From Vicinamibacterales bacterium (GTDB lineage Bacteria > Acidobacteriota > Vicinamibacteria > Vicinamibacterales > UBA8438): a stretch of 64,000 nucleotides of DNA. Position 1 is the first letter of the stretch, and every line of letters begins with the position of its first letter. A program made the position numbers and the translations under genes. Positions 1,937-53,710 of the stretch are shown in pieces. The stretch is taken from assembly GCA_965220695.1 (NCBI GenBank), contig OZ244838.1, positions 2,530,377-2,594,376 of the forward strand. Reading direction: 5' to 3'. Below the pieces are notes generated by a model. That model did no database searches and was not told the DNA's origin. It worked only from the letters and a program-made list of their open reading frames with translations.

Positions 1937-2038
1937 GCAGTCATGCCGCAGTCTGGGCAAGAGCAGCTACTTGTTCCCGGGTGCCGTGAAATGAGCAGTT
2001 ATGCCGCCGTCTGGTGCAAGAGCAACTACTCGTTCCTG
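1926..2038 (+). repeat. Tandem 57/58-bp duplication of the imuB-stop/dnaE2-start junction
   Basis: ccgtggaATGAgcagtcatgccgcagtctgg-gcaagagcagctacttgttcccgg (1926-1980) versus ccgtgaaATGAgcagttatgccgccgtctggtgcaagagcaactactcgttcctgg (1983-2038). About 85% identity, with a 1-nt deletion in the first copy. Confidence 0.85.
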
Positions 2039-5000
2039 GAGGGAGCGTCCCACCCGGAAGAGCTGGTCGAGCAGACGCATGCGCTGGGACTGCGCGCCCT
2101 CGCGCTGACCGACCGGGATGGCGTGTATGGCGTCGTCCGCGCCCACGTCCGGGCCCGCGAGCTGGGCGTCCATCTGATGCTCGGCGCCCAGATGACGCTG
2201 ACCGGCGGCGCGCACGTGATCCTGCTCGCCATGGACCGCGGCGGCTATGCCAACCTCTGCCGGCTGATCACCAGGGGACGGTTGCGTCATGCCAAGGGCG
2301 CCTGCAGCGTGACCCGGGACGATGTGTGCGAGCTCGCCGGCGGTCTGATCGCCCTCTGGCGCGGCGCGGACGACTGTCCGGCCGACACGGCGGCGAACCA
2401 CGACACGGCGCTGCCCGGCCCGCTGCGGGACGCGTTCGACGATCGGCTCTACGCGTTGCTGGCCCGGCACCGCCGCGCCGGCGACGTGCCGCGGGAAGGC
2501 CGGCTGCGCACGCAGGCGCGCGCCGCCGGCATCCCCCTCGTCGCCGGCGCCGAGGTGCTCTATCACACACCGGCGCGCCGCGACCTGCAGGACGTCCTGA
2601 CCTGTATCCGACACGGCACGAGCCTCTACCGCGCCGGGCGCCGCACGCGGGCCAACGCCGAGCACGACCTCAAGGCGCCGGCCGCGTTCGGCACGCTCTA
2701 CGCCGACGACCCGGCCGCCGTCGAGCGCACGCTCGAGATCGCCGCCCGCTGCACCTTCTCGCTCGGCGAGATCCGCTATCGCTATCCCTCCGAGCGGTTG
2801 CCGGACGGCGCCAGCTCGTCGAGCTGGCTGCGCCAACTGACCGAGCAGGGCGCGCGGCGGCGCTTCGGCGGTGTCATCCCCGCCACGGTGGCGGCGCAGA
2901 TCGCCAGGGAACTCGCGCTGATCGACGAGCTCGACTATTGCGGCTACTTCCTCACCATGTGGGAGATCGTCGAGTTCTGCCGCCGCCACGGCATCCTGTG
3001 CCAGGGACGGGGCTCGGCCGCCAACTCGGCGGTCTGCTACTGCCTGGGCATCACGGCGGTCGACCCGACCCGGGTCGAGTTGCTGTTCGAGCGGTTCCTG
3101 TCCCGTGAACGCGCCGAACCGCCCGACATCGACCTCGACATCATGCACGAGCGGCGTGAAGAGGCGATCCAGTTCGTCTACGCGAAGTACGGACGCGACC
3201 ACGCCGCCATGGTGGCCAACGTGATCCGCTACCGGTCGCGCTCGGCCGTGCGTGAGGTCGGCAAGGCCCTGGGACTGCCCGACACGGCGGTGGACCGACT
3301 GGCCAAACGGCTCTTCCATTCCGAGACCCTCGATCAGCGCGCCGTCGCGCAGGTGGGGCTCGACACCGGCAACCCGGCCCACATGCACCTGCTGCGGCTC
3401 GCCGACGAGATCACGGACTTCCCGCGGCATCTCTCGATTCATCCCGGCGGCTTCCTGCTGGGACACGAACCGGTGCACGACCTGGTGCCGATCGAGAACG
3501 CGGCGATGGACGGCCGCACCGTCATCCAGTGGGACAAGGAAGACCTGGAGGACCTCGGGCTGTTCAAGGTCGACCTGCTGGGCCTGGGCGCGCTCACCCA
3601 GCTCGATCTCTCGTTCACGCTGCTCGAACAGCACTACGGGCGCACGCTGTCGATGGCCACGATTCCGGAAGGCGACCAGGCCACCTACGACATGATCTGC
3701 CGCAGCGACACCGTCGGGGTGTTCCAGATCGAGAGCCGGGCCCAGATGGCGATGCTGCCGCGGCTCAAGCCGCGCACCTACTACGACCTGGTGATCGAGA
3801 TCTCGATCGTCCGTCCCGGCCCGATCACCGGCGGCATGGTGCACCCGTATCTCAGGCGCCGGAACGGTGAAGAGCCGGTCGTGTATCCCCACGCCTGCCT
3901 CGAACCGGTGCTGCGCAAGACCCTGGGCGTGCCGCTCTTCCAGGAACAGGTGATGCAACTGGCGATGGTGGCGGCCGACTACACCCCGGGCGAAGCAGAC
4001 CAGTTGCGCCGCGACATGGCGGCCTGGCGGCGCAGCGGGCGCATCGAACGCCACCGCGACCGGCTCATCACCCGCATGACGGCCAAGGGCATCGAGCCGG
4101 CGTTCGCCGAGCAGGTGTTCGACCAGATCCGCGGGTTCGGCGAGTACGGCTTTCCGGAAAGCCATGCCGCCAGCTTCGCGCTGATCGCCTATGCCACCTC
4201 CTGGCTGCGGCGCCACTACCCCGATGTCTTCACCTGCGCACTGCTCAACGCGCAGCCGATGGGGTTCTACGCCCCGGCCACCATCGTCGACGACGCCAAA
4301 CGGCACGGCACCGGGATACGGCCGATCGACATCACCCGCAGCGCGTGGCGCTGCACCCTTGAGCCGCACACCGAGCGATTCGCGGTGCGCATGGGCGTGC
4401 GGTATGTCAAGGGGCTGTCCGAATCGCGCGACTGGACCCGCATCGAGACCGCCCGCCAAGCGGCGCCGTTCACCTCGATAGACGACTTCGTGTCGAGGAC
4501 CGGGCTCGCTGAACCGACCTTGAGCCGCCTGGCCGAGGCCGGCGCCTTCGCGGTGCTGCAAGGACGCCGCCGCGACGCGCTATGGGCGGTGCACGGTCTC
4601 GCGCGCACCCCCGCCTCTGCCCTGCTCGGCAGCCCCGCCGAGGACGACACCCCCGCCTTCGAGGCGCTGGACCTGCGGGAGAGCATCGCGTGGGACTATC
4701 GCAGCAGCGCACACAGCCCGCGGGGGCACCCGCTGGCGACGTTGCGCGAGGCGTTGACGGCGCAGCGTCTGCCCGACGCCCGCACCGTCGCGTCGATGCC
4801 GGATGGACGGCAGACCCGCTACGCCGGTCTCGTCATCTGCCGCCAGCGCCCCGCCACCGCGGCCGGCGTCGTGTTCATGACGCTGGAAGACGAAACCGGG
4901 TTCGTGAACGTGGTGATCTGGAAGACCGTGTTCGACGAGCACGCGTTGATTGGCAAGACCGCCTCGTTCCTCGGCGTCACCGGCCGCATCCAGCGGGCGG

Positions 5001-5089
5001 ACGGCGTGGTGCACCTGGTGGCGGACACGCTGTGGCCGCCCGAGCTCGACCAACGGCCAGACGCGGTGCACAGCCGCGACTTTCACTGA
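1991..5089 (+). CDS. dnaE2: Error-prone DNA polymerase DnaE2 (Pol III alpha-type, PHP plus polymerase core)
   Basis: Track ORF 1943..5089. Homology-style start [26 protein letters not shown] at ATG 1991 (the typical DnaE2 N-terminus). Motifs [22 protein letters not shown]. Follows imuB. Confidence 0.9.
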
Positions 5090-5210: not shown

Positions 5211-6455
5211 TCACTCGGGATTCGTGATGACGACCGGCGTGTTGTGCGCCAGCGTGAAGTTGCCGTCGACCACGACGAGTTCACCCGCGCTGACACCGCG
5301 CAACGCCGCGTCGTCAGGCAGGATCTCCGTCTCGGCGCCGTTGGTCTCACCGAGCCCCACGTATTCCCATTCGGCGACATTGCCGCGCACCACCATGACG
5401 AGCGGCCGGTCGTCGCTGTAGAGCACCGCGGCGTTCGGGACGATCAGTCGATCCGGGAGCACCCTCCCTGTCATGGTGACCCGAACGTGCGAGCCTGAAC
5501 GCAACGGCGGTTGCCCGGACTCCACCGACAGGGTGACCAGGCCGACGCGACGCGTCGCATCGACGAGCGGTGAGATCCGCAGAATCCTGCCGTCCAGCAT
5601 CCGGTCAGGATCCGCTGCCGGCTGCATCGTCGCGCGGCCTCCGGGCAGGAGGCTGGCCAGGTCCGCTTCCAGCACCTCCGCATGCACCTCCACCTCGTCG
5701 AGGTCGACGAGCGTCAGCAGCGGCTCACCGGCGCCAACGACCTGTCCCACCTGCACGGCCACCTCGGCCACGGTCCCGGCGAACGGCGCGCGGACCACGC
5801 ACCGGTCGATCCGCAACTCGGCCTCCTCGATCGCGACCTCGGCGGCCGAAAGGCCAACGTCCGCCCGGATTGACCGGTCCCGTTGCTCCGGCTCGCCCAG
5901 CGCGCCGAGGTCGCGCGCACGCCTGGCGGCTTCCAGTTCGCGTCGCGGGATCAACCCGCGCGCGAACAGCCGTTCCATCTCGTCGAACTCCGCCGCCGTG
6001 ACGCCGCCGGGTTTCCAGAGTCCACCGGCCACATCGTCCTGTCCGATCCCGCGCGACGCGTACTGCATCAGGGCGCGCTGCCGGTCGGCATTGGCCCGCC
6101 GCAGGCTCAGCTCCGCGTCGCGGCAGTCGAAGCGTACCAACAGATCGGCCGCCGCTACGCGGGCGCCTTCCGGCCACGGCAACTCGACGACCGCGGCCCC
6201 CGCGCCGCTCACCAGCTCCAGCAGGCGCGTCGCCCGCACCTCGCCGTCCACCGCAACGGAGTGGACGAGATCGCCCCGCCGAGCCGGGGCGACGGTTACC
6301 GGCACGGCCTGCCGCTCCTGGTCGCGCTCGACGGCAGGCGCGCGCGCCGGCGGATCGGCCGCGGACTCCGTGGATCCGACCGAACATGCGCCGCTGGCGG
6401 CGACGGCGCCGAGACCCAGGAGCATCCCGAGCCGTCTCACGCGCGTGGTCTCCAT
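5211..6455 (-). CDS. RND efflux periplasmic adaptor (HlyD/MFP family) lipoprotein
   Basis: 414-aa ORF. Signal plus Cys (LGAVAASGACS), a coiled-coil-like Ala/Arg/Glu-rich middle and a beta-barrel C-terminus. Last gene of the RND operon. Confidence 0.8.
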   Translation of the reverse strand: METTRVRRLGMLLGLGAVAASGACSVGSTESAADPPARAPAVERDQERQAVPVTVAPARRGDLVHSVAVDGEVRATRLLELVSGAGAAVVELPWPEGARVAAADLLVRFDCRDAELSLRRANADRQRALMQYASRGIGQDDVAGGLWKPGGVTAAEFDEMERLFARGLIPRRELEAARRARDLGALGEPEQRDRSIRADVGLSAAEVAIEEAELRIDRCVVRAPFAGTVAEVAVQVGQVVGAGEPLLTLVDLDEVEVHAEVLEADLASLLPGGRATMQPAADPDRMLDGRILRISPLVDATRRVGLVTLSVESGQPPLRSGSHVRVTMTGRVLPDRLIVPNAAVLYSDDRPLVMVVRGNVAEWEYVGLGETNGAETEILPDDAALRGVSAGELVVVDGNFTLAHNTPVVITNPE

Positions 6456-13610: not shown

Positions 13611-13841
13611 ATGTGCAGAGTCATGAGGACGTGGCGGACGGAGTTCGTAATGGTGTTGCTTGCCCTTTGCTTGGTTGCCACCGCTACGGCAACGGTGACG
13701 GCGCAGATTGAATCGGAGTACCCCTGTCTCTTGTGGTTTGAGGGAATTGCCGAGGTCGACATCGACGAAGGTTGCCACTTCGTGCCCGGTGGCGAAGGAT
13801 GCGTGTATTGCTATATGCAAATAAACATAACCGTAGAATAG
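13611..13841 (+). CDS. Small secreted Cys-rich acidic peptide (76-aa precursor, ~46-aa mature)
   Basis: ATG 13611 is preceded by GGAGG. Signal-like MCRVMRTWRTEFVMVLLALCLVATATATVTA, then QIESEYPCLLWFEGIAEVDIDEGCHFVPGGEGCVYCYMQINITVE (4 Cys). Codon usage is more AT-rich than the neighbours. No family recognised. Confidence 0.5.
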   Translation: MCRVMRTWRTEFVMVLLALCLVATATATVTAQIESEYPCLLWFEGIAEVDIDEGCHFVPGGEGCVYCYMQINITVE

Positions 13842-13920
13842 ACTGTCGGACAACGTGGACATCACAACAGGGCGCACCGATGGGTTTGCAGGGTGCGCCG
13901 CGCGTGACGGGAGTGGGGCG

Positions 13921-15171
13921 ATGCGAACGACACGGAGCCGGTGCGGCCGGGCAACCGGTCGCAGAGCGCGCTCTTCGCGCGGATCCTTCGTGATCGGTTC
14001 CCACCGGCAGTGCGTCCGTCTGGGGCTGCTTGGCGCGGCACTGGTAACGGCCTGCGCCGGGCCGACGCAGCCGCATGCGATCGATGCGCAAGGCCGCCCG
14101 GCGGTCATTGATGAGAGGATTACGATTACGTGGCCGGTGGGTGTGCCCTCGGGAGTGATCGCTAACATTGAGATTTGCGGCGATCGCGCGTATCTGCGTG
14201 TGGCTCGGCAGCAAGTGATCCGCGTGGTTGACCTCGCTGCAGGACGGGTGGTGGGGCAGATCGGCCGCGGCGGTGAAGGGCCCGGCGAGTTGCGGTCCCC
14301 GACAGGTCTCATGGTGGATTGCGCCCGCGGGAGGCTCTATGTCGGCGAGGGTCCCTCCGGCATCACCGTCTATCGCCTTTCGGACGGGGAGTACGTGCGA
14401 AAATATTTCCAGCCGGATACCTTCGGGTTGACCGTCGGGTCTCCGATGTTTCTGTCGCCGGACGGCGCACGCCTGTTTGCGGGAGGATTGTGGGCGGCAT
14501 CAATGGAGCGATGGCGGGGCTTCAACCGCCGCCCGCAGGATGAAGTGCTGGCAGGGATGCAATTGGGCTTGGCCGTGTCCCTGGCGGACGGCGCCGCGAC
14601 ACCGTTGTTGTCGGGCCCGATCGAAACCACCTGTATCGGTTTGTTCGAGAACTGCCGTACCGTGACGATAGCGCGTGTGGACGGCGCGTCGGACCCGTGG
14701 GTCGTTGCGCAGGCCACCGCGACCTCGCTCGGCGTGTACGACCACGACGGTGCGCTGGTGCGCACCATCGACGTGCGGTCGCCGTCGTTTCTGCGCGACG
14801 GGTCCCGCGCGCAGCGCATGAGCCGCGACGGCGGCGGGCTGGTGGCCATGGCGGATTGGGGCCTGACCAACAGCACCATCCGGATGGTCTACGCATTCGG
14901 GAATGTTATCGCCACCGTGCACCGACATCATGCAGTGGAGTACAACCAGCTGGGAACGATGCAGTACAACGTCTTCATGAACCTGCACTCGCACGATGGG
15001 GATGCGCTTGTCAGTGACATCCGCCTGCCGGGTCTTCCGCTGGGACGCGACGACACGCACCTGCTGTTCATCGACTGGGGGCAGGCCGGACGCAGGATGG
15101 CCTTCGACGCGGTGGACCTCGTGCGCGTGCCGGTCCTGGCCGGCGAGGCCGGCTTCGTGCGGGGCGAATAG
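13921..15171 (+). CDS. NHL-repeat-like beta-propeller lipoprotein, paralog 1 of 5
   Basis: Track ORF 13855..15171. ATG 13921 (MRTTRSRCGR...) is conserved in all five paralogs. Lipobox-like LGAALVTAC. NHL-like motif GQIGRGGEGPGELRSP. Conserved Cys pairs (ICGDRAY, DCARGRL, TCIG..ENCRTV). Confidence 0.7.
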   Translation: MRTTRSRCGRATGRRARSSRGSFVIGSHRQCVRLGLLGAALVTACAGPTQPHAIDAQGRPAVIDERITITWPVGVPSGVIANIEICGDRAYLRVARQQVIRVVDLAAGRVVGQIGRGGEGPGELRSPTGLMVDCARGRLYVGEGPSGITVYRLSDGEYVRKYFQPDTFGLTVGSPMFLSPDGARLFAGGLWAASMERWRGFNRRPQDEVLAGMQLGLAVSLADGAATPLLSGPIETTCIGLFENCRTVTIARVDGASDPWVVAQATATSLGVYDHDGALVRTIDVRSPSFLRDGSRAQRMSRDGGGLVAMADWGLTNSTIRMVYAFGNVIATVHRHHAVEYNQLGTMQYNVFMNLHSHDGDALVSDIRLPGLPLGRDDTHLLFIDWGQAGRRMAFDAVDLVRVPVLAGEAGFVRGE

Positions 15172-15172
15172 C

Positions 15173-15736
15173 ATGGAGGACTCGTTGGATGCACCCGGAT
15201 CCACGACCGGCACGTCGACGGCGGCAACTGCCGACGGCGAGGCGGCGAGGTCGACGGTCGCCGGCCGTACGGTCGGGCGGCCCCGTTCCAGGTTGCGTGT
15301 GGCGGCCAGACTGCTGTTGGGGGCGCTGATCCTCGTGTCCGTCGGCGTGCTCATCAGCGACTACCGGCGGCAAGTCACCTGGACACGGGATCTGGCGGCG
15401 GCGTATGCGTTCGTCGCGGACCATCCCGAGGTGTCACGGTATCTCCCCTGCTTTTGCGGTTGCGGTCAACAGGCGGGACATTCGTCCGTGGACAGTTGCT
15501 TCGTGAGTCGACGGGACGATGCAGGGAACGTCGTCTCCGAGAACGCACACGCCAGAACCTGACCGGTGTGCGTCGACATCGCGCGTGTCGCGATGCGGAT
15601 GCACCAAGGCGGCGACACGGTTTCCGAGATTCAAGGCGCCATCGATGGAGCATACGGGGCGACGAATGTCCTCAGAACCGACACCCCGGCATGGCCAGAC
15701 CAGCGACCGGCCGCGGAGGCCGAGACGCCGCAGTAG
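15173..15736 (+). CDS. Membrane-anchored PCYCGC-family protein with in-frame TGA at 15560-15562 (candidate selenocysteine, U-P-V-C), copy 1
   Basis: ATG lies 1 nt after the NHL-1 stop (TAGcATG). TM helix RLRVAARLLLGALILVSVGVLI. AYAFVADHPEVSRYLPCFCGCGQQAGHSSVDSCF matches the PCYCGC signature. The track ORF stops at TGA 15560, but the frame stays open 57 more codons (PVCVDIARVAMRMHQGGDTVSEIQGAIDGAYG...) to TAG 15734-15736. A hairpin follows the TGA. Confidence 0.6.
15568..15604 (+). promoter_or_regulatory. SECIS-like hairpin 6 nt downstream of TGA 15560
   Basis: GUGCGUC/GGAUGCAC outer stem (7 bp, one G-U), a 2x2 internal loop, CAUCGCG/CGCGAUG inner stem (7 bp) and apical loop CGUGU at 15584-15588, i.e. 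22-26 nt after the UGA. Identical in all three copies. Confidence 0.5.
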
Positions 15737-15860
15737 TGGCAGGTGGACCTGGCACCGGAGGCTATATGGCTCGACACGTTCCAACCGCATGGTCCTCAGC
15801 GGCCCATAGCAGTCCGTGGTGAAACCCGCGTTGCACCGAGATCGGCGATGCGCGCGCTGA

Positions 15861-16147
15861 GCAAGACCTGTAGGGGCAACCCTTGTGGTTGCCCTGTTGT
15901 ACGCAAGACCTGTAGGGGCAACCCTTGTGGTTGCCCTGTTGTACGCAAGACCTGTAGGGGCAACCCTTGTGGTTGCCCTGTTGTACGCAAGACCTGTAGG
16001 CGCAACCCTTGTAGTTGCCCTGTTGTACGCAAGACCTGTAGGGGCAACCCTTGTGGTTGCCCTGTTGTACGCAAGACCTGTAGGCGCAACCCTTGTAGTT
16101 GCCCTGTTGTACGCAAGACCTGTAGGGGCAACCCTTGTGGTTGCCCT
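15861..16147 (+). repeat. Tandem array of 7 x 42-bp REP-like hairpin units
   Basis: Unit gcaagacctgtaGGGGCAACCcttgtGGTTGCCCtgttgtac (8-bp stem, 5-nt loop). Copies start at 15861, 15903, 15945, 15987, 16029, 16071 and 16113. Copies 4 and 6 carry the same two substitutions (taggCgcaacccttgtAgttgccc). Confidence 0.9.
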
Positions 16148-16197
16148 CTTCGTCAGCAGGAACAACGACGCGCAGCAGGATGCAGCGTGAAACAGCA

Positions 16198-16257
16198 GAA
16201 TTCAGCGGGGAAAGGCTGAATTCAGCGGGAGAGCTCAGAATTCAGCGGGGATCGAAC
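16198..16257 (+). repeat. Tandem array of 3 x 20-bp GAATTCAGCGGG units
   Basis: GAATTCAGCGGG at 16198, 16218 and 16238, plus a degenerate fourth unit. The core (C)TGAATTCAG is palindromic and AT-rich relative to the genome. Confidence 0.85.
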
Positions 16258-16429
16258 GCAGCGGGGCTTTTGCCACGGACTGCTACTAACCGCCTGATCA
16301 GGTCACCGTCTCCGAGCTCCCGCACTGCAGATGACGCGAACGAGGATCAGCGTTCCCCTCCTCTACTCCATCTCATCCTCGTTCAGAGCCGTTGCCGGCC
16401 CCAACCGATTCAGACCGCCGTCGGGCGCC

Positions 16430-16620
16430 TCACAAACTGTATCCGTCCGGCGAGTACGCGACGGCCTCCGGGAAGTAGATGTTCTCGATGATGGATCGAC
16501 CCATGTAGACGGGCGAGGTCGCGGTCCTGTTCCGAGCCAGGGTCCGCATGAACGCGTTCTCGTCCTTCGGCGCCGGGATGCCCACCTCAAGGCAGATGCG
16601 GACTATGCCGGGGACGACGC
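16430..16620 (-). pseudogene. Dead 3'-terminal fragment of the alpha/beta hydrolase gene found intact at 26805..27962
   Basis: Track ORF 16430..16639 ends ...GIVRICLEVGIPAPKDENAFMRTLARNRTATSPVYMGRSIIENIYFPEAVAYSPDGYSL. The intact gene's C-terminus reads ...GIVRTCLEVGIPAPEDENAFMRTLARNRTATSPVYMGRSIIENIYFPGAVAYSPDGYSF. No N-terminal part is present. Confidence 0.85.
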
Positions 16621-16657
16621 GCGCCGGCAGAGGGTACACCGATGGGTCCGTAAGGAG

Positions 16658-16702
16658 TCTGCGCCGTCAGTAGGTTGTAAGCTGTATTCTCTGCGGCGCA
16701 GA
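16658..16702 (+). promoter_or_regulatory. Conserved leader element with 9-bp inverted repeat upstream of NHL paralogs 2-5
   Basis: TCTGCGCCG-(27 nt AT-rich: tcagtaggttgtaagctgtattctctg)-CGGCGCAGA. Near-identical blocks lie ahead of the starts at 19462, 20983 and 22503. Function unknown. Confidence 0.3.
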
Positions 16703-16738
16703 TTCCACGAGCGCGCCGCGCGAGAGGGACGCGGAACG

Positions 16739-17998
16739 ATGCGAACGACACGGCGTCGATGTGGCCGGGCGTGGCGGGTGATCGGCTACCGTGGGCACTC
16801 TCAGGGCAGGTCGTCCGTTGTCGGTTCGCACCGGCATTTTGTTTACCTGGGGCTGCTTGGCGCGGCACTGGTGACGGCCTGCGGCGGACCGACGCAGCCG
16901 TATGCGGTCGATGCGCAAGGGCGTCCGGCGGTCATTGATGACAGGATGACGATAACGTGGCCGGTGGGCGTGCCCTCGGGGCTGATTGCTAGCATCGAGA
17001 CCTGCGGCGGTCGCGCGTATCTGCACGTTGCTGGGCAGCAAGTGTTCCGCGTGGTTGACCTCGCCGCCGGGCGGGTTGTGGGGCAGATTGGCCGCGGCGG
17101 CGAAGGGCCCGGCGAGTTGCGGCAGCCGATAAGTCTCCTGGCGGATTGCGCACGCGGGAGGCTCTTCGTCGGCGAGGCTCCGGCCGGCATCACGGTCTAT
17201 CGCCTTCCGGACGGGGAGTACCTGCGAGAATTCTCCCTGCCGTGGCGTACGTTCGGGTTGTCTACCTTTACTCCGATGTTTCTGTCGCCGGACGGCGCAC
17301 GCCTGTTTGCGGGCGGGTTGTGGGCATCAAGAGATCGATGGCAGGGCTTTAGCCGGCGCCCGCAGGATGAAGTGCTGGCGGGGATGCAATCGGGTCTGGC
17401 CTTGTCCCTGGTGGACGGCGCGGCGGCGCCCTTGTTCTCGAGCCCGATCGAACCCGCCTGCATCGGATCGCAAAACGACTGTCGCACCGTGGCGATAGCG
17501 CGTGTGGAGGGGGCGCCGGACCCGTGGATCGTCGCGCAGGCCACCGCGACCTCGCTCGGCGTGTACGACGACGACGGTGCGCTGGTGCGCACCATCGACG
17601 TGCGGTCGCCGTTGTTCCTGCGCGACGGGTTCCGCGCGCGGCGCATGAGCCGCGATGGCGGGGGCTTTGCGGCCATGGTGGATTGGGGCCTGACCAACAG
17701 CACCGTCGGGAACGTCTACGCATTCGGGGACGTGATCGCCACCGTGCACCGACATCATGCAGTGGAGTACAACCAGCCGGGGCCCCTGCAGTACAACGTC
17801 CTCATGAACCTGCACTCGCACGATGGGGATGGGCTGGTCAGCGACATCCGCCTGCCGGGTCTTCCGCTGGGACGCGACGACACGCACCTGCTCTTCATCG
17901 ACTGGGGGCAGGCTGGACGCAGGATGGCCTTCGACGCGGTGGACCTCGTGCGGGTGCCGGTCGTGGCCGGCGAGGCCGGCTTCGTGCGGGGCGAATAG
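16739..17998 (+). CDS. NHL-repeat-like beta-propeller lipoprotein, paralog 2
   Basis: Track ORF 16331..17998. Conserved ATG 16739 (MRTTRRRCGRAW...), LGAALVTAC lipobox, GQIGRGGEGPGELRQP. High identity to paralog 1. Confidence 0.7.
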   Translation: MRTTRRRCGRAWRVIGYRGHSQGRSSVVGSHRHFVYLGLLGAALVTACGGPTQPYAVDAQGRPAVIDDRMTITWPVGVPSGLIASIETCGGRAYLHVAGQQVFRVVDLAAGRVVGQIGRGGEGPGELRQPISLLADCARGRLFVGEAPAGITVYRLPDGEYLREFSLPWRTFGLSTFTPMFLSPDGARLFAGGLWASRDRWQGFSRRPQDEVLAGMQSGLALSLVDGAAAPLFSSPIEPACIGSQNDCRTVAIARVEGAPDPWIVAQATATSLGVYDDDGALVRTIDVRSPLFLRDGFRARRMSRDGGGFAAMVDWGLTNSTVGNVYAFGDVIATVHRHHAVEYNQPGPLQYNVLMNLHSHDGDGLVSDIRLPGLPLGRDDTHLLFIDWGQAGRRMAFDAVDLVRVPVVAGEAGFVRGE

Positions 17999-17999
17999 C

Positions 18000-18542
18000 A
18001 TGGAGGACTCTGTGGACGCACCCGGATCCACGACCGACACGTCGACGGCGGCGAGTTCGACGGTCGCCGGCCGAACGGTCGGGCGGCCCCGTTCCAGGAT
18101 GCGTGTGGCGGCCAGACTGCTGTTGGGGGCGCTGATCCTCGTGTCCGCCGGCGTGCTCATCAGCGACTACCGGCGGCAAGTCACCTGGACGCGAGATCTT
18201 GCGGCGGCGTATGCGTTCGTCGCGGACCATCCCGAGGTGTCACGGTATCTCCCCTGCTTTTGCGGTTGCGGTCAACAGGCGGGACATTCGTCCGTGGACA
18301 GTTGCTTCGTGAGTCGACGGGACGAGGCAGGGAACGTCGTCTCCGAGAACGCACACGCCAGAACCTGACCGGTGTGCGTCGACATCGCGCGTGTCGCGAT
18401 GCGGATGCACCAACGCGGCGACACGGTTTCCGAGATTCAAGGCGCCATCGATGGAGCATACGGGGCGACGAATGTCCTCAGAACCGACACCCCGGCATGG
18501 CCAGACCAGCGACCGGCCGCGGAGGCCGAGACGCCGCAGTAG
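18000..18542 (+). CDS. PCYCGC-family candidate selenoprotein, copy 2 (in-frame TGA 18366-18368)
   Basis: ATG lies 1 nt after the NHL-2 stop. Same architecture as copy 1, with a 7-aa deletion in the N-terminal tail. The frame continues from the TGA to TAG 18540-18542. Confidence 0.6.
18374..18410 (+). promoter_or_regulatory. SECIS-like hairpin after TGA 18366
   Basis: Sequence identical to the hairpin at 15568-15604. Confidence 0.5.
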
Positions 18543-18664
18543 CGGCGGGTGGACCTGGCGCCGGAGGCTATGGTTCGACCCGCTCCAACCGCATGGTCCT
18601 CAGCGGCCCATAGCAGTCCGTGGTGAAACCCGCGTTGCACCGAGATCGGCGATGCGCGCGCTGA

Positions 18665-18825
18665 GCAAGACCTGTAGGGGCAACCCTTGTGGTTGCCCTG
18701 TTGTACGCAAGACCTGTAGGGGCAACCCTTGTGGTTGCCCTGTTGTACGCAAGACCTGTAGGCGCAACCCTTGTAGTTGCCCTGTTGTACGCAAGACCTG
18801 TAGGGGCAACCCTTGTGGTTGCCCT
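18665..18825 (+). repeat. Tandem array of 4 x 42-bp REP-like hairpin units
   Basis: Units start at 18665, 18707, 18749 (variant type) and 18791. Same consensus as the array at 15861. Confidence 0.9.
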
Positions 18826-18875
18826 CTTCGTCAGCAGGAACAACGACGCGCAGCAGGATGCAGCGTGAAACAGCA

Positions 18876-18975
18876 GAATTCAGCGGGGAATGGCTGAATT
18901 CAGCGGGTGAGCTCAGAATTCAGCGGGGAAAGGCTGAATTCAGCGGGAGAGCTCAGAATTCAGCGGGGATCGAAT
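18876..18975 (+). repeat. Tandem array of 5 x 20-bp GAATTCAGCGGG units
   Basis: GAATTC at 18876, 18896, 18916, 18936 and 18956, plus a degenerate terminal unit. Confidence 0.85.
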
Positions 18976-19158
18976 GCAGCGGGGCTTTTGCCACGGACTG
19001 CTACTAACCGCCAGATCCGGTCACCGGCTCCGAGCTCCCGCACTGCAGATGACTCCAACGAGGATCAGCGTTCCACTCCTCTACTCCATCTCATCCTCCT
19101 TCAGAGCCCTTGCCGGCCCCAACCGATTCGGACCGCCGCCGCCGCACCGTCGGGCGCC

Positions 19159-19340
19159 TCAGAAACTGTATCCGTCCGGCGAGTACGCGATGGCCCCCGG
19201 GAAGTAGATGTTCTCGATGATGGAGCGACCCATGTAGACGGGGGACGTCGCGGTCCTGTTTCGAGCCACGGTCGGCATGAACGCGTTCTCGTCCTCCGCC
19301 GCCGGAATGCCCAACTCGAGGCAGGTGCGGACTATGCCGG
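19159..19340 (-). pseudogene. Second dead 3'-terminal fragment of the alpha/beta hydrolase gene
   Basis: Track ORF 19159..19368 ends ...GIVRTCLELGIPAAEDENAFMPTVARNRTATSPVYMGRSIIENIYFPGAIAYSPDGYSF. Confidence 0.85.
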
Positions 19341-19461
19341 GGACAACGCGGGACGGCACAGGGTGCACCGATGGGTCCGCAAGGAGTCTGCGCCGTCAGT
19401 ATGTTGTAAGCTGTATTTTCTGCGCCGCAGATTGCGTCGCGCGAGAGGGGCGCGGAACGAA

Positions 19462-20736
19462 ATGCGAACGACACGGAGCCGATGTGGCCGGGCGTGGCGG
19501 GTGATCCGCTACCGTGGGCACTTTCGGCGCAGGTCGTCCGTTGTTGGTTCCCACCGGCATTTCGTTTGCCTGGGACTGCTTGGCGCGGCGCTGATAGCGG
19601 CCTGCGGCGAGCCGAGGCAGTATGCGGTCGATGCTCACGGGCGTCCGGCGGTCATTGACGATCGCGTGACGATAACGTGGCCGGTGGACGTGCCCTCGGG
19701 ACTGATCCTTCTTGCCGCGACCTGCGGTGATCGCATGTATCTGCGCGCGACAGGCCAGCAACGCGCGTCTCGCCAGCAAGTGATCCGCGTGGTTGACCTC
19801 GCCGCCGGACGGGTGGTGGGGCAGATCGGCCGAGGCGGCGAAGGGCCCGGCGAGTTGGAACAGCCGACAACTCTCCTGGCGGATTGCGCACGCGGGAGGC
19901 TCTTCGTCGGCGACCCTCCGGCCGGCATCAAGGTATATCGCCTTCCGGACGGGAAGTATCTGCGAGATTTCTCCCTGCCGTGGCGTACGTTCGGGTTGTC
20001 CACTTTGACTCCGATGTTTCTGTCGCCGGATGGCGCACACCTGTTTGCGGGCGGGTTGTGGGCATCAACAGATCAATGGATGGGCTTCAACGCGCGTCCG
20101 CAGGATGAAATGCTGGCGGCGATGCAATTGGGCTTGGCCTTGTCCCTGGCGGACGGCACGGCGGCGCCGTTGTTCTCTGGTCCGGTCGAAACTGCCTGCA
20201 TTGGATTGCCCGAGAACTGCCGCACGGTGACGATAGCGCGTGTGGACGGGGCGCCGGACCCGTGGATCGTCGCGCAGGCCACCGCGACCTCGCTCGGCGT
20301 GTACGACGACGACGGGGCGCTGGTGCGCACCATCGACGTGCGGTCGCCATCGTTCCTGCGGGACGGATCCCGGGCGCGGCGCATGAGACGCGATGGTGGG
20401 GGCTATGCGGCCATGGTGGATTGGGGCCTGACCAACAGCACCATCCGGAACGTCTACGCATTCGGGGACGTGATCGCGACCGTGCATCGGTATCACGCCA
20501 CGGAGTACAACCAGCAGGGGCCCCTGCAGTACAACGTCTTCATGAACCTGCACTCGTACGATGGGGATGGGCTGGTCAGCGACATCCGCCTGCCGGGTCA
20601 TCCGGTGGGCCGCGACGACACGCACCTGCTCTTCATCGACTGGGGGCAGGCCGGACGCAGGATGGCCTTCGACGCGGTGGACCTCGTGCGCGTGCCGGTC
20701 CTGGCCGGCGAGGCCGGCTTCGTGCGGGGCGAATAG
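19462..20736 (+). CDS. NHL-repeat-like beta-propeller lipoprotein, paralog 3
   Basis: Track ORF 18907..20736. Conserved ATG 19462 (MRTTRSRCGRAW...). Carries a short internal duplication (LRATGQQRASRQQVIRVVD) that is shared with paralog 4. Confidence 0.7.
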   Translation: MRTTRSRCGRAWRVIRYRGHFRRRSSVVGSHRHFVCLGLLGAALIAACGEPRQYAVDAHGRPAVIDDRVTITWPVDVPSGLILLAATCGDRMYLRATGQQRASRQQVIRVVDLAAGRVVGQIGRGGEGPGELEQPTTLLADCARGRLFVGDPPAGIKVYRLPDGKYLRDFSLPWRTFGLSTLTPMFLSPDGAHLFAGGLWASTDQWMGFNARPQDEMLAAMQLGLALSLADGTAAPLFSGPVETACIGLPENCRTVTIARVDGAPDPWIVAQATATSLGVYDDDGALVRTIDVRSPSFLRDGSRARRMRRDGGGYAAMVDWGLTNSTIRNVYAFGDVIATVHRYHATEYNQQGPLQYNVFMNLHSYDGDGLVSDIRLPGHPVGRDDTHLLFIDWGQAGRRMAFDAVDLVRVPVLAGEAGFVRGE

Positions 20737-20737
20737 C

Positions 20738-20865
20738 GGGGATTGCACGCGGAGAGTTCGGCTGCCGGGTCCCACCGCTCGCCGCCGTGCGATCTGACGA
20801 TGAGCCTCGGCACGCGGGCGAAGTCAAGCGACGCCTTCGTACGCTGGCCGGCCGCAATACACCGG
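20738..20865 (-). pseudogene. 128-bp internal fragment of the 12778..13311 gene, copy A
   Basis: Aligns to 13011-13138 (ggggatYgcacgcggaga...gtcccaccgctcgccgccgtgcgatctgac...acaccgg). Starts 2 nt after the NHL-3 stop. Confidence 0.8.
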
Positions 20866-20982
20866 ATCGGCACAGGGTGCACCGATCGGTCGGCAAGGAG
20901 TCGGCGCCGTCAGTATGTTGTAAGTTGATTTCTTGCGACGCAGATTCGCCGCTTGCGCCGCGCGAGAGGGGCGCGGAACGAA

Positions 20983-22260
20983 ATGCGAACGACACGGAGC
21001 CGATGTGGCCGGGCGTGGCGGGTGATCGGCTACCGTAGGCACTCTCAGCGCAGGTGTTCCGTGATCGGTTCCCACCGGCAGTTCGCCTGTCTGGGGCTGC
21101 TTGGCGCGGCGCTGGTGACGGCCTGCGCCGGACCGACGCAGCCGTATGCGGTCGATGCGCAAGGGCGCCCGGCGGTCATCGACGATCGGGTGACGATAAC
21201 GTGGCCGGCGGGCGTGCCCTCGGGACTGATCGTTCTTGCCGCGACCTGCGGTGATCGCGTGTATCTGCGCGCGACTGGCCAACAACGCGCGTCTCGCCAG
21301 CAAGTGATCCGCGTGGTTGACCTCGCCGCCGGACGGGTGGTGGGGCAGATCGGCCGCGGCGGCGAAGGGCCCGGCGAGTTGCAGCAGCCGACAACTCTCC
21401 TGGCGGATTGCGCACGCGGGAGGCTCTTCGTCGGCGACCCTCCGGCCGGCATCAAGGTCTATCGCCTTCCGGACGGGGAGTACCTGCGAGATTTCTCCCT
21501 GCCGTGGCGTACGTTCGATTTGTCCACCTTGACTCCGATGTTTCTGTCGCCGGATGGCGCACGCCTGTTTGCGGGCGGGATGTGGGCATCAACAGAACAA
21601 TGGCTGGGCTTCAACGCGCGCCCGCAGGATAAATTGCTGGCGGGGATGCAATTGGGCTTGGCCTTGTCCCTGGCGGACGGCGCGGCGGCACCGTTGTTCT
21701 CTGGTCCGGTCGAAACCGCCTGCATTGGATTGCCCGAGAACTGCCGCAACGTGACGATAGCGCGTGTGGACGGGGCGCCGGACCCGTGGATCGTCGCGCA
21801 GGCCACCGCGACCTCGCTCGGCGTGTACGACGACGACGGCGCGCTGGTGCGCACCATCGACGTGCGGTCGCCGTCGTTCCTGCGCGACGGGTCTCGCGCG
21901 CGGCGCATGAGCCGCGATGGCGGGGGCTATTCGGCCATGGTGGATTGGGGCCTGACCAACAGCACCATCCAGGACGTCTACGCATTCGGGGACGTGATCG
22001 CCACCGTGCATCATTATCACGCCACGGAGCGCAACCAGCAGGGGCCCCTGCAGTACAACGTCTTCATGAACCTGCACTCGCACGATGGGGATGGGCTGGT
22101 CAGCGACATCCGCCTGCCGGGTCATCCGGTGGGCCGCGACGACACGCACCTGCTCTTCGTCGACTGGGGGCAGGCCGGACGCAGGATGGCCTTCGACGCC
22201 GTGGACCTCGTGCGCGTGCCGGTCCTGGCCGGCGAGGCCGGCTTCGTGCGGGGCGAATAG
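20983..22260 (+). CDS. NHL-repeat-like beta-propeller lipoprotein, paralog 4
   Basis: Track ORF 20953..22260. Conserved ATG 20983. Same motifs as the other paralogs. Confidence 0.7.
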   Translation: MRTTRSRCGRAWRVIGYRRHSQRRCSVIGSHRQFACLGLLGAALVTACAGPTQPYAVDAQGRPAVIDDRVTITWPAGVPSGLIVLAATCGDRVYLRATGQQRASRQQVIRVVDLAAGRVVGQIGRGGEGPGELQQPTTLLADCARGRLFVGDPPAGIKVYRLPDGEYLRDFSLPWRTFDLSTLTPMFLSPDGARLFAGGMWASTEQWLGFNARPQDKLLAGMQLGLALSLADGAAAPLFSGPVETACIGLPENCRNVTIARVDGAPDPWIVAQATATSLGVYDDDGALVRTIDVRSPSFLRDGSRARRMSRDGGGYSAMVDWGLTNSTIQDVYAFGDVIATVHHYHATERNQQGPLQYNVFMNLHSHDGDGLVSDIRLPGHPVGRDDTHLLFVDWGQAGRRMAFDAVDLVRVPVLAGEAGFVRGE

Positions 22261-22261
22261 C

Positions 22262-22388
22262 GGGGATCGCACGCGGAAAGCTCTGCTGCCGGGTCCCACC
22301 GCTCGCCGCCGTGCGATCTGACGATGAGCCTCAAGGCGGGCGAAGTCAAGCGACTCCTTCGTACGCTGGCCGGCCGCAATACACCGGG
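22262..22388 (-). pseudogene. 128-bp internal fragment of the 12778..13311 gene, copy B
   Basis: Aligns to 13011-13138. Starts 2 nt after the NHL-4 stop. Confidence 0.8.
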
Positions 22389-22502
22389 CCGGCACAGGGT
22401 GCACCGCTGGGTCCGCAAGAAGTCTGCGCCCACAGATGTTGTAGGCTGTATTTTCTGCGGCGCAGACTCCCCGAGTGCGCCGCGCGAGAGGGGCGCGGAA
22501 CG

Positions 22503-23771
22503 ATGCGAACGACACGGCGCCGATGTGGCCGGGCGTGGCGGGTGACCGGGCACCGTGTGCGCTCTCAGGGCAGGTCGTCCGTTGTCGGTTCGTACCGGCA
22601 TTTTGTTTACCTGGGGCTGCTTGGCGCGGCGCTGATAACGGCCTGCGCCGAGCCGAGGCAGTATGCGGTCGATGCGCACGGGCGTCCGGCGGTCATCGAC
22701 GAACGGGTGACGATAACGTGGCCGGTGGGCGTGCCCTCGGGACTGATCAACGGTGTCGAGACCTGCGGCGATCGCGCGTATCTGCACGTGTCTCGGCAGC
22801 AAGCGATCGGCATCCGCGTGGTTGACCTCGTCGCCGGACGGGTGGTGGGGCAGATCGGCCGAGGCGGCGAAGGGCCCGGCGAGTTGCGGCAACCGATAAG
22901 TCTCCTGGCGGATTGCGCACGCGGGAGGCTCTTCGTCGGCGAGGCTCCGGCCGGCATCACGGTCTATCGCCTTTCGGACGGGGAGTACCTGCGAGAATAC
23001 CCCCTGCCGCGGCGTCCCTTCACCTTCGGGTTTTCCACCCTTACTCCGATGTTTCTGTCGCCGGACGGCGCACGCCTGTTTGCGGGCGGGTTGTGGGCAT
23101 CAAGAGAACGATGGCAGGACTTCAGTTGGCGCCCGCAGGATGAAGTGCTGGCGGGGATGCAATCGGGTCTGGCCTTGTCGCTGGCGGACGGCGCGGCGGC
23201 GCCCTTGTTCTCGAGCCCGATCGAACCCGCCTGCATCGGATCGCACAACGACTGCCGCATCGTGACGATAGCGCGTGTGGACAGGGCGCCGGACCCGTGG
23301 ATCGTCGCGCAGGCCACTGCGACCTCGCTCGGCGTGTACGACGACGACGGCGCGCTGGTGCGCACCATCGACGTGCGGTCGCCGTCGTTCCTGCGCGACG
23401 GGTCCCGCGCGCGGCGCATGAGCCGCGATGGCGGGGGCTTTGCGGCCATGGCGGATTGGGGCCTGACCAACAGCACCATCCGGAGGGTCTACGCATTCGG
23501 GGACGTGATCGCCACCGTGCACCGACATCATGCAGTGGAGTACAACCAGCCGGAATACCTCCAGTACAACGTCTTCATGAACCTGCACTCGCACGATGGG
23601 GATGGGCTGGTCAGCGACATCCGCCTGCCGGGTCTTCCGCTGGGACGCGACGACACGCACCTGCTGTTCATCGACTGGGGGCAGGCCGGACGCAGGAACG
23701 CCTTTGATGAAGTGGACCTCGTGCGCGTGCCGGTCCTGGCCGGCGAGGCCGGCTTCGTGCGGGGCGAATAG
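22503..23771 (+). CDS. NHL-repeat-like beta-propeller lipoprotein, paralog 5
   Basis: In frame within track ORF 21786..23771. Conserved ATG 22503 (MRTTRRRCGRAW...). The upstream part of the track ORF is an out-of-context read-through across paralog 4. Confidence 0.7.
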   Translation: MRTTRRRCGRAWRVTGHRVRSQGRSSVVGSYRHFVYLGLLGAALITACAEPRQYAVDAHGRPAVIDERVTITWPVGVPSGLINGVETCGDRAYLHVSRQQAIGIRVVDLVAGRVVGQIGRGGEGPGELRQPISLLADCARGRLFVGEAPAGITVYRLSDGEYLREYPLPRRPFTFGFSTLTPMFLSPDGARLFAGGLWASRERWQDFSWRPQDEVLAGMQSGLALSLADGAAAPLFSSPIEPACIGSHNDCRIVTIARVDRAPDPWIVAQATATSLGVYDDDGALVRTIDVRSPSFLRDGSRARRMSRDGGGFAAMADWGLTNSTIRRVYAFGDVIATVHRHHAVEYNQPEYLQYNVFMNLHSHDGDGLVSDIRLPGLPLGRDDTHLLFIDWGQAGRRNAFDEVDLVRVPVLAGEAGFVRGE

Positions 23772-23772
23772 C

Positions 23773-24336
23773 ATGGAGGACTCGTTGGACGCACCCGGAT
23801 CCACGACCGGCGCGGCGACGGCGGCAACTGCCGACGGCGAGGCGGCGAGGTCGACGGTCGCCGGCCGTTCGGTCGGGCGGCCCCGTTCCAGGTTGCGTGT
23901 GGCGGCCAGACTGCTGTTGGGGGCGCTGATCCTCGTGTCCGTCGGCGTGCTCATCAGCGACTACCGGCGGCAAGTCACCTGGACACGGGATCTGGCGGCG
24001 GCGTATGCGTTCGTCGCGGACCATCCCGAGGTGTCACGGTATCTCCCCTGCTTTTGCGGTTGCGGTCAACAGGCGGGACATTCGTCCGTGGACAGTTGCT
24101 TCGTGAGTCGACGGGATGAGGCAGGACACGTCGTCTCAGAGAACGCACACGCCAGAACCTGACCGGTGTGCGTCGACATCGCGCGTGTCGCGATGCGGAT
24201 GCACCAACGCGGCGACACGGTTTCCGAGATTCAAGGCGCCATCGATGGAGCATACGGGGCGACGAATGTCCTCAGAACCGACACCCCGGCATGGTCAGGC
24301 CAGCGACCAGCCGCGGAGGCCGAGACGCCGCAGTAG
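23773..24336 (+). CDS. PCYCGC-family candidate selenoprotein, copy 3 (in-frame TGA 24160-24162)
   Basis: ATG lies 1 nt after the NHL-5 stop. The frame continues from the TGA to TAG 24334-24336. A few substitutions relative to copy 1 occur on both sides of the TGA. Confidence 0.6.
24168..24204 (+). promoter_or_regulatory. SECIS-like hairpin after TGA 24160
   Basis: Sequence identical to the hairpin at 15568-15604. Confidence 0.5.
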
Positions 24337-26790: not shown

Positions 26791-26804
26791 GACCGTCGGG
26801 CGCC

Positions 26805-27962
26805 TCAGAAACTGTATCCGTCCGGCGAGTACGCGACGGCCCCCGGGAAGTAGATGTTCTCGATGATGGAGCGACCCATGTAAACGGGGGACGTCGCGGT
26901 CCTGTTCCGAGCCAGAGTCCGCATGAACGCGTTCTCGTCCTCCGGCGCCGGGATGCCCACCTCGAGGCAGGTGCGGACGATCCCGGCCATCTCCTCGGGC
27001 TCGTCGCGTTGCAGGTAGTGGTTGGCCGTGGGCAGCAGCCAGTAGCTGCTCTCCGCCGCCCGCTTGTCGAGATAGTTGTACCAGATGTGATTGCCGATGC
27101 GGGGCGGGTTCACCGTGTCCAGAAGCCCCCAGATGAGCGCCGTCGGGATCGGGCTCTCGCGCAGGGTGTCCAGCCAGCGGTACTCGTTCGCTGTTCGCTC
27201 AAGCAGGTACTTGCCGACATACAGCCGTGCGCCGATCCCGTCGTTGAACGCCTGGATGTCAGCGTAGGCGACCTGCCGCGGCGTGCCTTCCGTCACCCGC
27301 GGCCGGGCCTGCTGCGCCCGGATCAGCTCGGGACCTCGCACGGCGTCCTGAATCGCGTACTGGCCCGGGCTGAGGTTGGCCAGGGGCAGAAAGAGCCCGC
27401 CGTTGGATATGAAGTGATAGGTGATCTCGTAGGCCCTCTCCTCACGCGCCAGGTAGTTGCCCAGAAAGGCGAAGCCGACGCTGCCGCCGCGATCGTGGGT
27501 CAGGAGATGGAACCGGGACAGTCCCACGACCTCCCGGACGAAGTGATCGACGAGCTTCGCGTCGTCCTCCAGCATGTACGAATAGCCGTCTTGCGGCTTG
27601 TCCGAGAAGCCGAAACCGGGAAAGTCGAGGACAGCGACGAAGTAATCCTCTTCCAGGAAGGGAATCATCTCCCGGAAGTCGAAACTCGACGTGGGATAGC
27701 CGTGCAGAATCAGCAGCGCCGGGTTGGCGCGGTTCCCGAAGGTCCGGTAGAAGACATTGACTCGACGGCCCTCGTTGTTGGGCGTCGTCGAGGTCCACTC
27801 GAAGTACTCTCCGGAGCGGTACCACTCTTCGGCGAGCGGGGAATAGAATGTGAAATCGGTCTGGGGAGCGCGCGTCTGCGAGCCGATCACGGTCGCACTC
27901 GCGTAGGGGCTCACGAGCGCCGGACCCGCGGCCGCGAGCTTCAGGAATGAACGTCTATCCAT
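26805..27962 (-). CDS. Tat-exported alpha/beta hydrolase
   Basis: 385 aa. Twin-arginine-like leader MDRRSFLKLAAAGPALV. LILHGYPTSSFDFREM and HDRGGSVG (nucleophile-elbow-like) motifs. Its 3' end is the source of the fragments at 16430 and 19159. Confidence 0.75.
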   Translation of the reverse strand: MDRRSFLKLAAAGPALVSPYASATVIGSQTRAPQTDFTFYSPLAEEWYRSGEYFEWTSTTPNNEGRRVNVFYRTFGNRANPALLILHGYPTSSFDFREMIPFLEEDYFVAVLDFPGFGFSDKPQDGYSYMLEDDAKLVDHFVREVVGLSRFHLLTHDRGGSVGFAFLGNYLAREERAYEITYHFISNGGLFLPLANLSPGQYAIQDAVRGPELIRAQQARPRVTEGTPRQVAYADIQAFNDGIGARLYVGKYLLERTANEYRWLDTLRESPIPTALIWGLLDTVNPPRIGNHIWYNYLDKRAAESSYWLLPTANHYLQRDEPEEMAGIVRTCLEVGIPAPEDENAFMRTLARNRTATSPVYMGRSIIENIYFPGAVAYSPDGYSF

Positions 27963-53465: not shown

Positions 53466-53710
53466 CGGTTGCGCTCCTCTCGATGGGCACACCACCCGGC
53501 ATGCCGTACCGCACCCCGGTTCCGGGCACCCGGCTCGAGGCGCCTCGATACACGCCTCGTTGACCGGCTCGCTGGTTCCGGACGCTCTGCGCGCCGGCCC
53601 GGCCATTCCCCCTGTGTCAGGCTACCGGGATTCTACCCAATCACCGCGGGAGCGTGGTCGGTTTTCTCATCCTGTCCGCGAGCGTCCCGTGTCGGCGCCC
53701 GTCTACGGTC

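Follow-up and report, generated by a model that had tools for sequence, protein, structure and literature searches.

In-frame UGA codons followed by a probable bacterial SECIS in three PCYCGC-family genes of a Vicinamibacterales bacterium

Three closely similar genes of a Vicinamibacterales bacterium (Acidobacteriota) contain an in-frame TGA codon with a hairpin just downstream, which raises the question of whether this codon ends translation or is read as selenocysteine (Sec, U) under the direction of a selenocysteine insertion sequence (SECIS). We analyzed 64,000 nucleotides (nt) of this genome (contig OZ244838.1, forward-strand positions 2,530,377 to 2,594,376; hereafter the window, numbered from its first letter), in which these genes, members of the PCYCGC family (PF13798), carry the TGA at 15560, 18366, and 24160. 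Judging from comparisons among homologous sequences, the three codons very probably specify the Sec of a U-x-x-C motif in a membrane-anchored PCYCGC/CYCXC protein, with the stem-loop at 15577-15595 serving as a bacterial SECIS (bSECIS).

The sequence from 15560 to 15604 reads TGA CCG GTG TGC GTC GAC ATC GCG CGT GTC GCG ATG CGG ATG CAC, and this 45-nt string occurs exactly three times, once at each of the three TGA codons, with 0 occurrences expected by chance; the initial annotation had likewise found the hairpin identical in three copies. It had described a 37-nt hairpin composed of a 7-bp outer stem with one G-U pair, a 2x2 internal loop, a 7-bp inner stem (CAUCGCG/CGCGAUG), and a CGUGU loop, and RNAfold agrees. 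With the U of UGA counted as nt 1, the outer stem joins nt 9-15 to nt 39-45 (15568-15574/15598-15604) and is separated by the 2x2 internal loop from the inner stem, on which the 5-nt apical loop CGUGU occupies nt 25-29 (15584-15588). The UGA is thus separated by 5 nt from the hairpin, by 14 nt from the inner stem, and by 21 nt (nt 4-24) from the loop. Two details needed correction, as the 3' outer arm had been given as GGAUGCAC and is the 7-nt GAUGCAC, and the gap between UGA and hairpin, reported as 6 nt, is a 5-nt spacer with the hairpin beginning at the sixth nucleotide. The loop residues G26, U27, G28, and U29 do lie 23-26 nt downstream when counted after the A of UGA, and the translation VCVDIARVAMRMH that had been given for the hairpin, as part of a coding sequence, is correct. 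A transcription terminator was ruled out, there being no U-tract 3' of the hairpin.

When Cys is placed at the TGA, the read-through product of copy 1 is 187 aa long, and a single PF13798 match crosses the TGA (profile positions 53-151 of 153; E 2.9e-22; 79.6 bits, above the gathering threshold of 25 bits). The protein has one N-terminal hydrophobic helix, predicted to be transmembrane, and its motifs follow in the order PCFCGCG...H...C...U-P-V-C; the conserved residues are seven Cys/Sec and one His, and the protein is single-pass membrane or lipoprotein-like. The TGA substitutes for the first Cys of a conserved C-x-x-C, after which the frame is open through the conserved domain to a TAG. Copies 2 and 3 keep the frame and the same TAG stop, with amino-acid substitutions on either side of the TGA, and the GC content at third codon positions (GC3) is equal upstream and downstream of the TGA (0.775 vs 0.772). 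The three copies lie within duplicated segments that are 97-98% identical, and because they are recent duplicates their identity is no independent evidence.

Independent evidence comes from homologs. A word-indexed protein search yielded four relatives; P0002 (86% identity) and P0003 (65%) are annotated to end at ...NAHA[KR]T, precisely at the position of the window's TGA, and P0004 (46%) is full-length and reads ...HAERCAVCVNV. On the 6.87-Mb chromosome of a Vicinamibacterales metagenome-assembled genome (MAG), the DNA encoding P0003 reads on past a TGA in an open frame that contains the conserved C-terminal half (PVCIDIARVAMRMH...IQQAIDDAY...TPTP) and stops 46 codons after the TGA. A genome scan retrieved further TGA forms from two MAGs, one Gemmatimonadales and one Sphaerobacterales (Chloroflexota), and a Cys form from another Acidobacteriota MAG, and a metagenome scan retrieved 80 more loci, with TGA forms from soil metagenomes among them. 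The site aligned to the window's TGA is TGA in 26 cases, TGC in 62, TGT in 6, and TAA or TAG in none. Removal of duplicates left 16 distinct TGA forms (hereafter also Sec forms) and 59 distinct Cys forms. The TGA forms come from Acidobacteriota, Gemmatimonadota, Chloroflexota, and soil metagenomes, and in a neighbor-joining tree that, given the short sequences, is indicative only, they make up at least five clades with Cys forms in between. A search of 1.84 billion representatives returned 930 matches, mostly Cys forms, with one truncated form among the best 150.

Some individual loci have peculiarities of their own. In a Vicinamibacterales locus (L008, OZ253576.1, ~3001-3309) the homolog stops after ...HPEVSRY, before the PCFCGC motif, and unrelated sequence follows, which suggests that this copy is rearranged. 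On a contig of 1x coverage (L005) two copies (1610-1790 and 5589-5770) are frameshifted 3' of the hairpin, probably through read errors; the first of them carries the changes C15U and G39U, by which the internal loop is widened.

The stem-loop separates the Sec forms from the Cys forms. In each of the 16 distinct TGA forms the seven inner pairs (nt 18-24/30-36) are complete and a CG[U/G]GN loop occupies identical positions, the loop being CGUGA in nine, CGUGU in four, and CGGGU, CGGGA, or CGUGC in one each. Among the 59 Cys forms, two have seven pairs in register (L013, loop CAUCA; L018, loop CAGCA), neither of them with a CG[U/G]G loop, and no Cys form has a loop that is closed by four or more consecutive pairs and carries a G as its first or second nucleotide. 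Where a Cys form encodes the peptide found in Sec forms, the structure is likewise incomplete, with five pairs in L012 (DVARDAMQM; UGUUGCC-AGGGA-UGCUAUG) and six in L014 (DVAREAMQL; CGUCGCG-CGCGA-AGCGAUG). The initial annotation had pointed to Cys orthologs that retain the hairpin, and to TGA orthologs without any, as findings that would speak against a SECIS; both comparisons favor a SECIS, since no Cys form has the stem together with its loop and no TGA form is without them at the same nucleotides.

The covariation analysis that it had proposed revealed compensatory changes at two pairs. In a 15-sequence alignment, three sequences have C-G and the other 12 G-C at pair 24/30, and one has A-U and the other 14 G-C at pair 22/32; pair 19/35 is A-U in seven and G.U in eight, and no inner-stem cell is unpaired. 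The covariation score was 0.192 against 0.152 for shuffles, with 4/500 shuffles reaching 0.192, and slid 3' partners gave 12-52% pairing against 88.6% in the proposed structure. Codon choice and amino acids are constrained in the same region. Over codons 6-12, Sec forms have a third-codon-position entropy of 0-0.5 bit, as against 1.0-1.8 bit for Cys forms and 1.2-1.9 bit for the Sec forms themselves outside the hairpin; the amino acids encoded by codons 9, 11, and 12 vary with an entropy of 0-0.3 bit among Sec forms and of 1.6-2.6 bit among Cys forms. The Arg codon of the loop is CGU in 15/17 cases, CGG in 2/17, and never CGC, which is the commonest Arg codon in the window, where CGU accounts for 8%. 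We also trained a covariance model on 11 Sec forms from outside Vicinamibacterales, with the TGA itself omitted. It scored the three window sites at 57.1 bits (E 2.7e-15) and the other held-out Vicinamibacterales sites at 49.8-52.4 bits, compared to 42.4 bits for the best Cys form and at most 35.3 bits for the remaining ones, so that separation of Sec and Cys forms was complete. The Cys forms score at all because they are homologous coding sequence; elsewhere in the window no score exceeded 14.6 bits.

The outer stem behaves differently. Its pairing is alike in Sec forms (mean 5.4/7) and Cys forms (5.5/7), in L010 the helix takes another register, and it originates where UGC, an invariant Cys codon, and the [IV] codon after it pair with the Met-His codons AUG CAC. 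As it is equally frequent in Cys forms, we rejected it as a Sec-specific signal; it is a coding by-product that may add stability. By these alignments, the element specific to Sec forms is the inner 19-nt stem-loop at 15577-15595. The overall minimum free energy (MFE) of the 45 nt after the codon was also rejected as a criterion, the means being -19.1 for Sec forms and -15.8 for Cys forms, with several Cys forms folding more strongly in other registers; since it discriminates poorly, position-specific pairing was used.

The element can be set against the bSECISearch model of Zhang & Gladyshev, which, as summarized in PMC13188914 (Fig. 2 legend), describes an upper stem of 4-16 bp that carries an apical loop of 3-9 nt, with G as at least one of the loop's first two nucleotides and usually G or U after it, a distance of 16-37 nt from UGA to loop, and an MFE of -7.5 kcal/mol or lower. 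Here a 5-nt loop closes a 7-bp stem, the loop starts C-G-U, the distance is 21 nt, and the MFE is -9.9 kcal/mol for the inner stem-loop alone and -21.9 kcal/mol for the full hairpin, all four within the model. The element further lies in coding sequence directly after an in-frame UGA aligned with the Cys of homologs, and its structure is conserved with covariation in UGA orthologs (16/16) and not in Cys orthologs (0/59). The earlier proposal of a bacterial SECIS thus stands for the inner 19-nt stem-loop, which agrees with the bSECIS model, and falls for the outer stem, which is not Sec-specific.

Nevertheless, several observations weigh against interpreting the hairpin as a SECIS and the gene as a selenoprotein gene. 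Taken by itself, the window sequence only marginally beats chance (z -1.8 to -2.5): dinucleotide shuffles gave z = -1.78 (12/200) for 51 nt, -2.51 (6/200) for 37 nt, and -0.96 for the inner stem-loop. The hairpin alone is barely unusual because amino acids dictate most of its pairing. The peptide D-[IV]-A-x-x-A-M automatically forces five of the seven inner pairs through first and second codon positions, and only pairs 21/33 and 24/30 connect two third codon positions. When the peptide was kept and synonymous codons were drawn from the window's own codon usage, 22% of draws had all seven inner pairs, 4.4% had both stems, and 1.1% reached an MFE equal to or below that of the native sequence. 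Many Cys forms keep five or six of the seven pairs, so the structure seems partly inherent to the coding sequence. No Rfam SECIS family was detected in the whole window at the gathering threshold or in 15450-15750 at E up to 10. At the protein level, the window protein matches NCBIfam NF041379 (OS_HP4_CYCXC, 'CYCXC family (seleno)protein', an equivalog) with E 7e-17 and is homologous over the whole 90-position model, and its 61.3 bits miss the equivalog cutoff of 90 bits. As for decoding capacity, Pfam/NCBIfam annotation of ~30 genes of the 64-kb window found no selA, selB, or selD, and ARAGORN found no tRNA-Sec, and no tRNA gene at all, in the window. ARAGORN likewise found no tRNA-Sec in 23 related loci. 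It is the comparative data that give the hairpin its significance.

Much of this is what one would see if, in a GC-rich genome, the conserved peptide C-V-D-I-A-R-V-A-M-R-M-H had produced the hairpin as a mere by-product with no role in UGA decoding, given that most of the outer pairing, along with five of the seven inner pairs, is dictated by the amino acids, that the outer stem is equally frequent in Sec and Cys forms, and that the inner stem appears in 22% of synonymous draws with a shuffle z of only -1.8. Such a by-product would not account for an Arg at codon 9 and A/V-M at codons 11-12 that are fixed in TGA forms only, for synonymous sites frozen in the same forms only, for compensatory changes at two pairs, or for same-peptide Cys forms that lose pairs and loop (a split of 16/16 vs 0/59); the comparative data have already largely refuted it, and we regard it as very unlikely. 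That the TGA is a true stop, leaving truncated 129-aa proteins or pseudogenes with the downstream frame as a relic, accords with the gene callers, which end the proteins there, and the window copies, as recent duplicates, could share one inactivating mutation. We consider it extremely improbable, for at least five divergent clades of three phyla have TGA at the site and none has TAA or TAG there, the downstream frame is open with family residues (x-x-C, M, I, D, T-P..P) and a conserved stop region, GC3 is the same on both sides, and the Pfam match runs across the TGA.

Recoding by the same SelB-type hairpin could also insert an amino acid other than Sec, for example Cys from a selC*-like tRNACys(UCA) with a second SelB, as has been proposed for some Deltaproteobacteria (PMC7609411). 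Such systems are described, unusual allo-tRNAs occur in Acidobacteria (PMC7609411), and the sequence offers nothing to tell Sec from Cys insertion; against this, there is no sign here of such a tRNA or of a second selB, ordinary Sec use is documented in Acidobacteria/Acidobacteriota (PMC1794560, Table 2; PMC12013277, Table 2), and the family is catalogued as a selenoprotein, which makes this alternative highly improbable.

If the UGA is a Sec codon, the established SelB mechanism would apply as follows. With the ribosome at the UGA, the stem-loop, 14 nt further on, would still be folded, and the C-terminal winged-helix domains of SelB would bind its apical loop (G26, U27). SelB.GTP.Sec-tRNASec, so tethered at the A site, would allow Sec to be inserted instead of termination, and translation would go on for 57 codons to the TAG at 15734. 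What the data show is that the UGA corresponds to Cys, that the frame is conserved, that the stem-loop is conserved and covaries specifically in Sec forms, and that it fits the bSECIS model; SelB binding, Sec insertion, and the presence of selABCD in the genome are inferred. Because the SECIS would lie within coding sequence, both the codons and the amino acids of the Sec forms (D-[IV]-A-R-x-A-M) would be fixed by it.

A scan for TGA codons with coding-like sequence on both sides brought up a second candidate in the window. This gene encodes an AhpC/TSA domain (E 1.7e-27, the match crossing the TGA) fused to DsbD_N, and its TGA at 28629 lies within FYRSAVW-U-PYC, the W-C-P-Y-C site of the AhpC/TSA domain. 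The codon is followed by a 6-bp hairpin, GCAGCU[GGUCG]AGCUGC (-10.4 kcal/mol, z -2.26), in which the loop GU is at nt 25-26, one nucleotide away from that of the PCYCGC element (nt 26-27); this nearly equal distance is consistent with one SelB reading both elements. More than 100 clusters of homologs are annotated to begin just after the TGA, a full-length Cys relative (P0092) reads WCSYC, and a 59%-identical homolog (L092) keeps both TGA and hairpin, with a C-to-U change that preserves the pair. It is likely a second selenoprotein gene, and as such would lend indirect support to Sec decoding in this organism, as does the Sec use documented in Acidobacteria/Acidobacteriota.

The features discussed are collected in Table 1. 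The partner gene upstream of PCYCGC copy 1 belongs to an array of five 6-bladed beta-propeller paralogs (DUF5128-like; 13837-23771, + strand; 70-95% nt identity), each of which terminates ...AGEAGFVRGE-TAG, and three of which are followed 1 nt on by a PCYCGC-Sec gene. A segment of ~290 nt is present in three copies (16418-16704, 19147-19433, and 26793-27079; 92% and 73% identity). The third is outside the array, where it overlaps the 3' end of an opposite-strand alpha/beta-hydrolase gene, and it possibly marks one edge of what was duplicated. A 42-nt unit is repeated in tandem directly after PCYCGC copies 1 and 2 (15861-16147, 6.8 copies; 18665-18825, 3.8 copies), and an array of a 59-nt unit occurs elsewhere in the window (53706-53987, 4.8 copies); all three arrays have in common the palindromic core GGGCAACC(N5)GGTTGCCC and look like a family of hairpin repeats resembling repetitive extragenic palindromes (REP).

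Table 1. Coordinates of the PCYCGC genes, their predicted Sec-decoding elements, and other genes in the window.
Feature	Position	Strand	Details
Upstream partner gene, 6-bladed beta-propeller (DUF5128-like)	13921..15171	+	TAG 1 nt before ATG of PCYCGC copy 1
PCYCGC-family (PF13798) gene, copy 1	15173..15736	+	ATG 15173; in-frame TGA 15560-15562; TAG 15734-15736
Predicted Sec codon, in-frame UGA	15560..15562	+	aligned with first Cys of C-x-x-C in 59 Cys homologs
Full hairpin, 37 nt	15568..15604	+	RNAfold -21.9 kcal/mol
Putative SECIS core, 19-nt inner stem-loop	15577..15595	+	7-bp CAUCGCG/CGCGAUG, nt 18-24/30-36; element nt 18-36
PCYCGC gene, copy 2	18000..18542	+	UGA 18366-18368; hairpin 18374-18410; core 18383-18401
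PCYCGC gene, copy 3	23773..24336	+	UGA 24160-24162; hairpin 24168-24204; core 24177-24195
Second candidate selenoprotein gene	28284/28302-29495	+	TGA 28629-28631; hairpin 28646-28662

Two further gene groups of the window are recorded for completeness. An imuB-like (IMS family) gene followed by a dnaE2-like gene for an error-prone DNA polymerase III alpha (398-5089, + strand) constitutes the usual SOS mutagenesis cassette. A gene for a HepT-like RNase with a fused DUF429 lies beside a nucleotidyltransferase (Polbeta/MNT-like) gene (41410-43154, - strand); the two probably form a HepT/MNT toxin-antitoxin pair, in which the fusion to DUF429 is unusual.

As to what the protein does, its neighbors elsewhere offer some indication. 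A multicopper oxidase gene is located upstream of the Sec-form gene in L087 and L010 (Gemmatimonadales), and an RND pump gene is nearby, likewise upstream, in L023 and L001, which suggests a role in handling copper or other thiophilic metals, or in redox reactions, outside the cytoplasm. The RND pumps of the window itself were not used as functional evidence, being generic and on the opposite strand. On the metagenome contig L087 (1633 and 2130-2132), the multicopper oxidase gene, the PCYCGC-Sec gene, and an AhpC-like open reading frame (ORF) with an in-frame stop at VLVFYMHAG*GMCRAQL stand side by side, so that two candidate selenoprotein genes adjoin the copper oxidase. The CGUG stem-loop is almost invariant in Sec forms and decays stepwise in neighboring Cys forms. 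One might tentatively suppose from this that Sec is ancestral in the soil branch of PF13798, that repeated Sec-to-Cys conversions left 'fossil' hairpins, and that the family is an extracytoplasmic selenoprotein of copper or thiophilic-metal handling, a combination that we think possible and rather doubtful. If true, it would tie the use of selenium by aerobic soil bacteria to metal resistance.

The identification of the UGA as a probable Sec codon has more immediate uses. It would correct the annotation of the three window genes and of many database homologs that are now called truncated 100-130-aa proteins plus an orphan 45-aa ORF, and would extend the catalogued, uncharacterized CYCXC/OS_HP4 family to Vicinamibacterales, Gemmatimonadales, and Sphaerobacterales. 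It would also provide a clear natural case of a SECIS dictating the amino-acid sequence that it overlaps (ARxAM), and it comes with a specific covariance model by which Sec and Cys forms can be told apart; how Sec decoding itself is understood does not change.

Among known selenoproteins, the closest relative is the family already catalogued. OS_HP4 (PF13798) is listed as a UxxC selenoprotein family in PMC13188914. That review credits the family to the Olavius symbiont study (PMC1976440), whose main text does not mention OS_HP4. The window protein resembles OS_HP4/NF041379 in belonging to the same Pfam family and in having Sec at the same UxxC position (U-P-V-C in the window), and differs in that its gene is triplicated and paired with a beta-propeller gene. 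Seven further Sec forms score 53-78 bits against NF041379, and the Cys form L013 scores 69.1 bits; by these scores, the tested Sec forms from soil, Acidobacteriota, Gemmatimonadota, and Chloroflexota make up a divergent branch outside the curated equivalog. The selenoprotein family is thus already known, and the soil branch, divergent and apparently undescribed, extends it. PCYCGC, PF13798, and CYCXC are sparsely mentioned in the literature, in which we found no description of a SECIS for the soil branch, and a PDB sequence search gave weak saposin matches only, with no relative of solved structure. The 28629 candidate is comparable to the AhpC/TSA (peroxiredoxin-like) UxxC selenoproteins, with its W-U-P-Y-C site and GGUCG-loop hairpin, and is unlike the PCYCGC gene in its protein family, its DsbD_N fusion, and its stem sequence.

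Compared to the bSECIS consensus, nothing essential differs in the PCYCGC element. Its primary sequence, however, is unusually conserved across phyla (loop CG[U/G]GN, stem C[A/G]UC[G/A]C[G/C]), whereas bSECIS elements of different families usually have no sequence in common. The SECIS elements of E. coli fdhF and fdnG are experimentally defined, with a bulged U in the upper stem, a GGUC-type loop, and an upper stem that begins 11 nt after the UGA. The PCYCGC element shares with them an upper stem-loop that exposes a G-U in its apical loop ~20-25 nt after the UGA, and the contact with SelB is presumably similar. In contrast to them, it has no bulged U, a spacer of 14 rather than 11 nt, and the loop CGUGU rather than GGUC. 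By this analogy, the PCYCGC element would work like an fdhF-type SECIS, yet it is not of that subtype.

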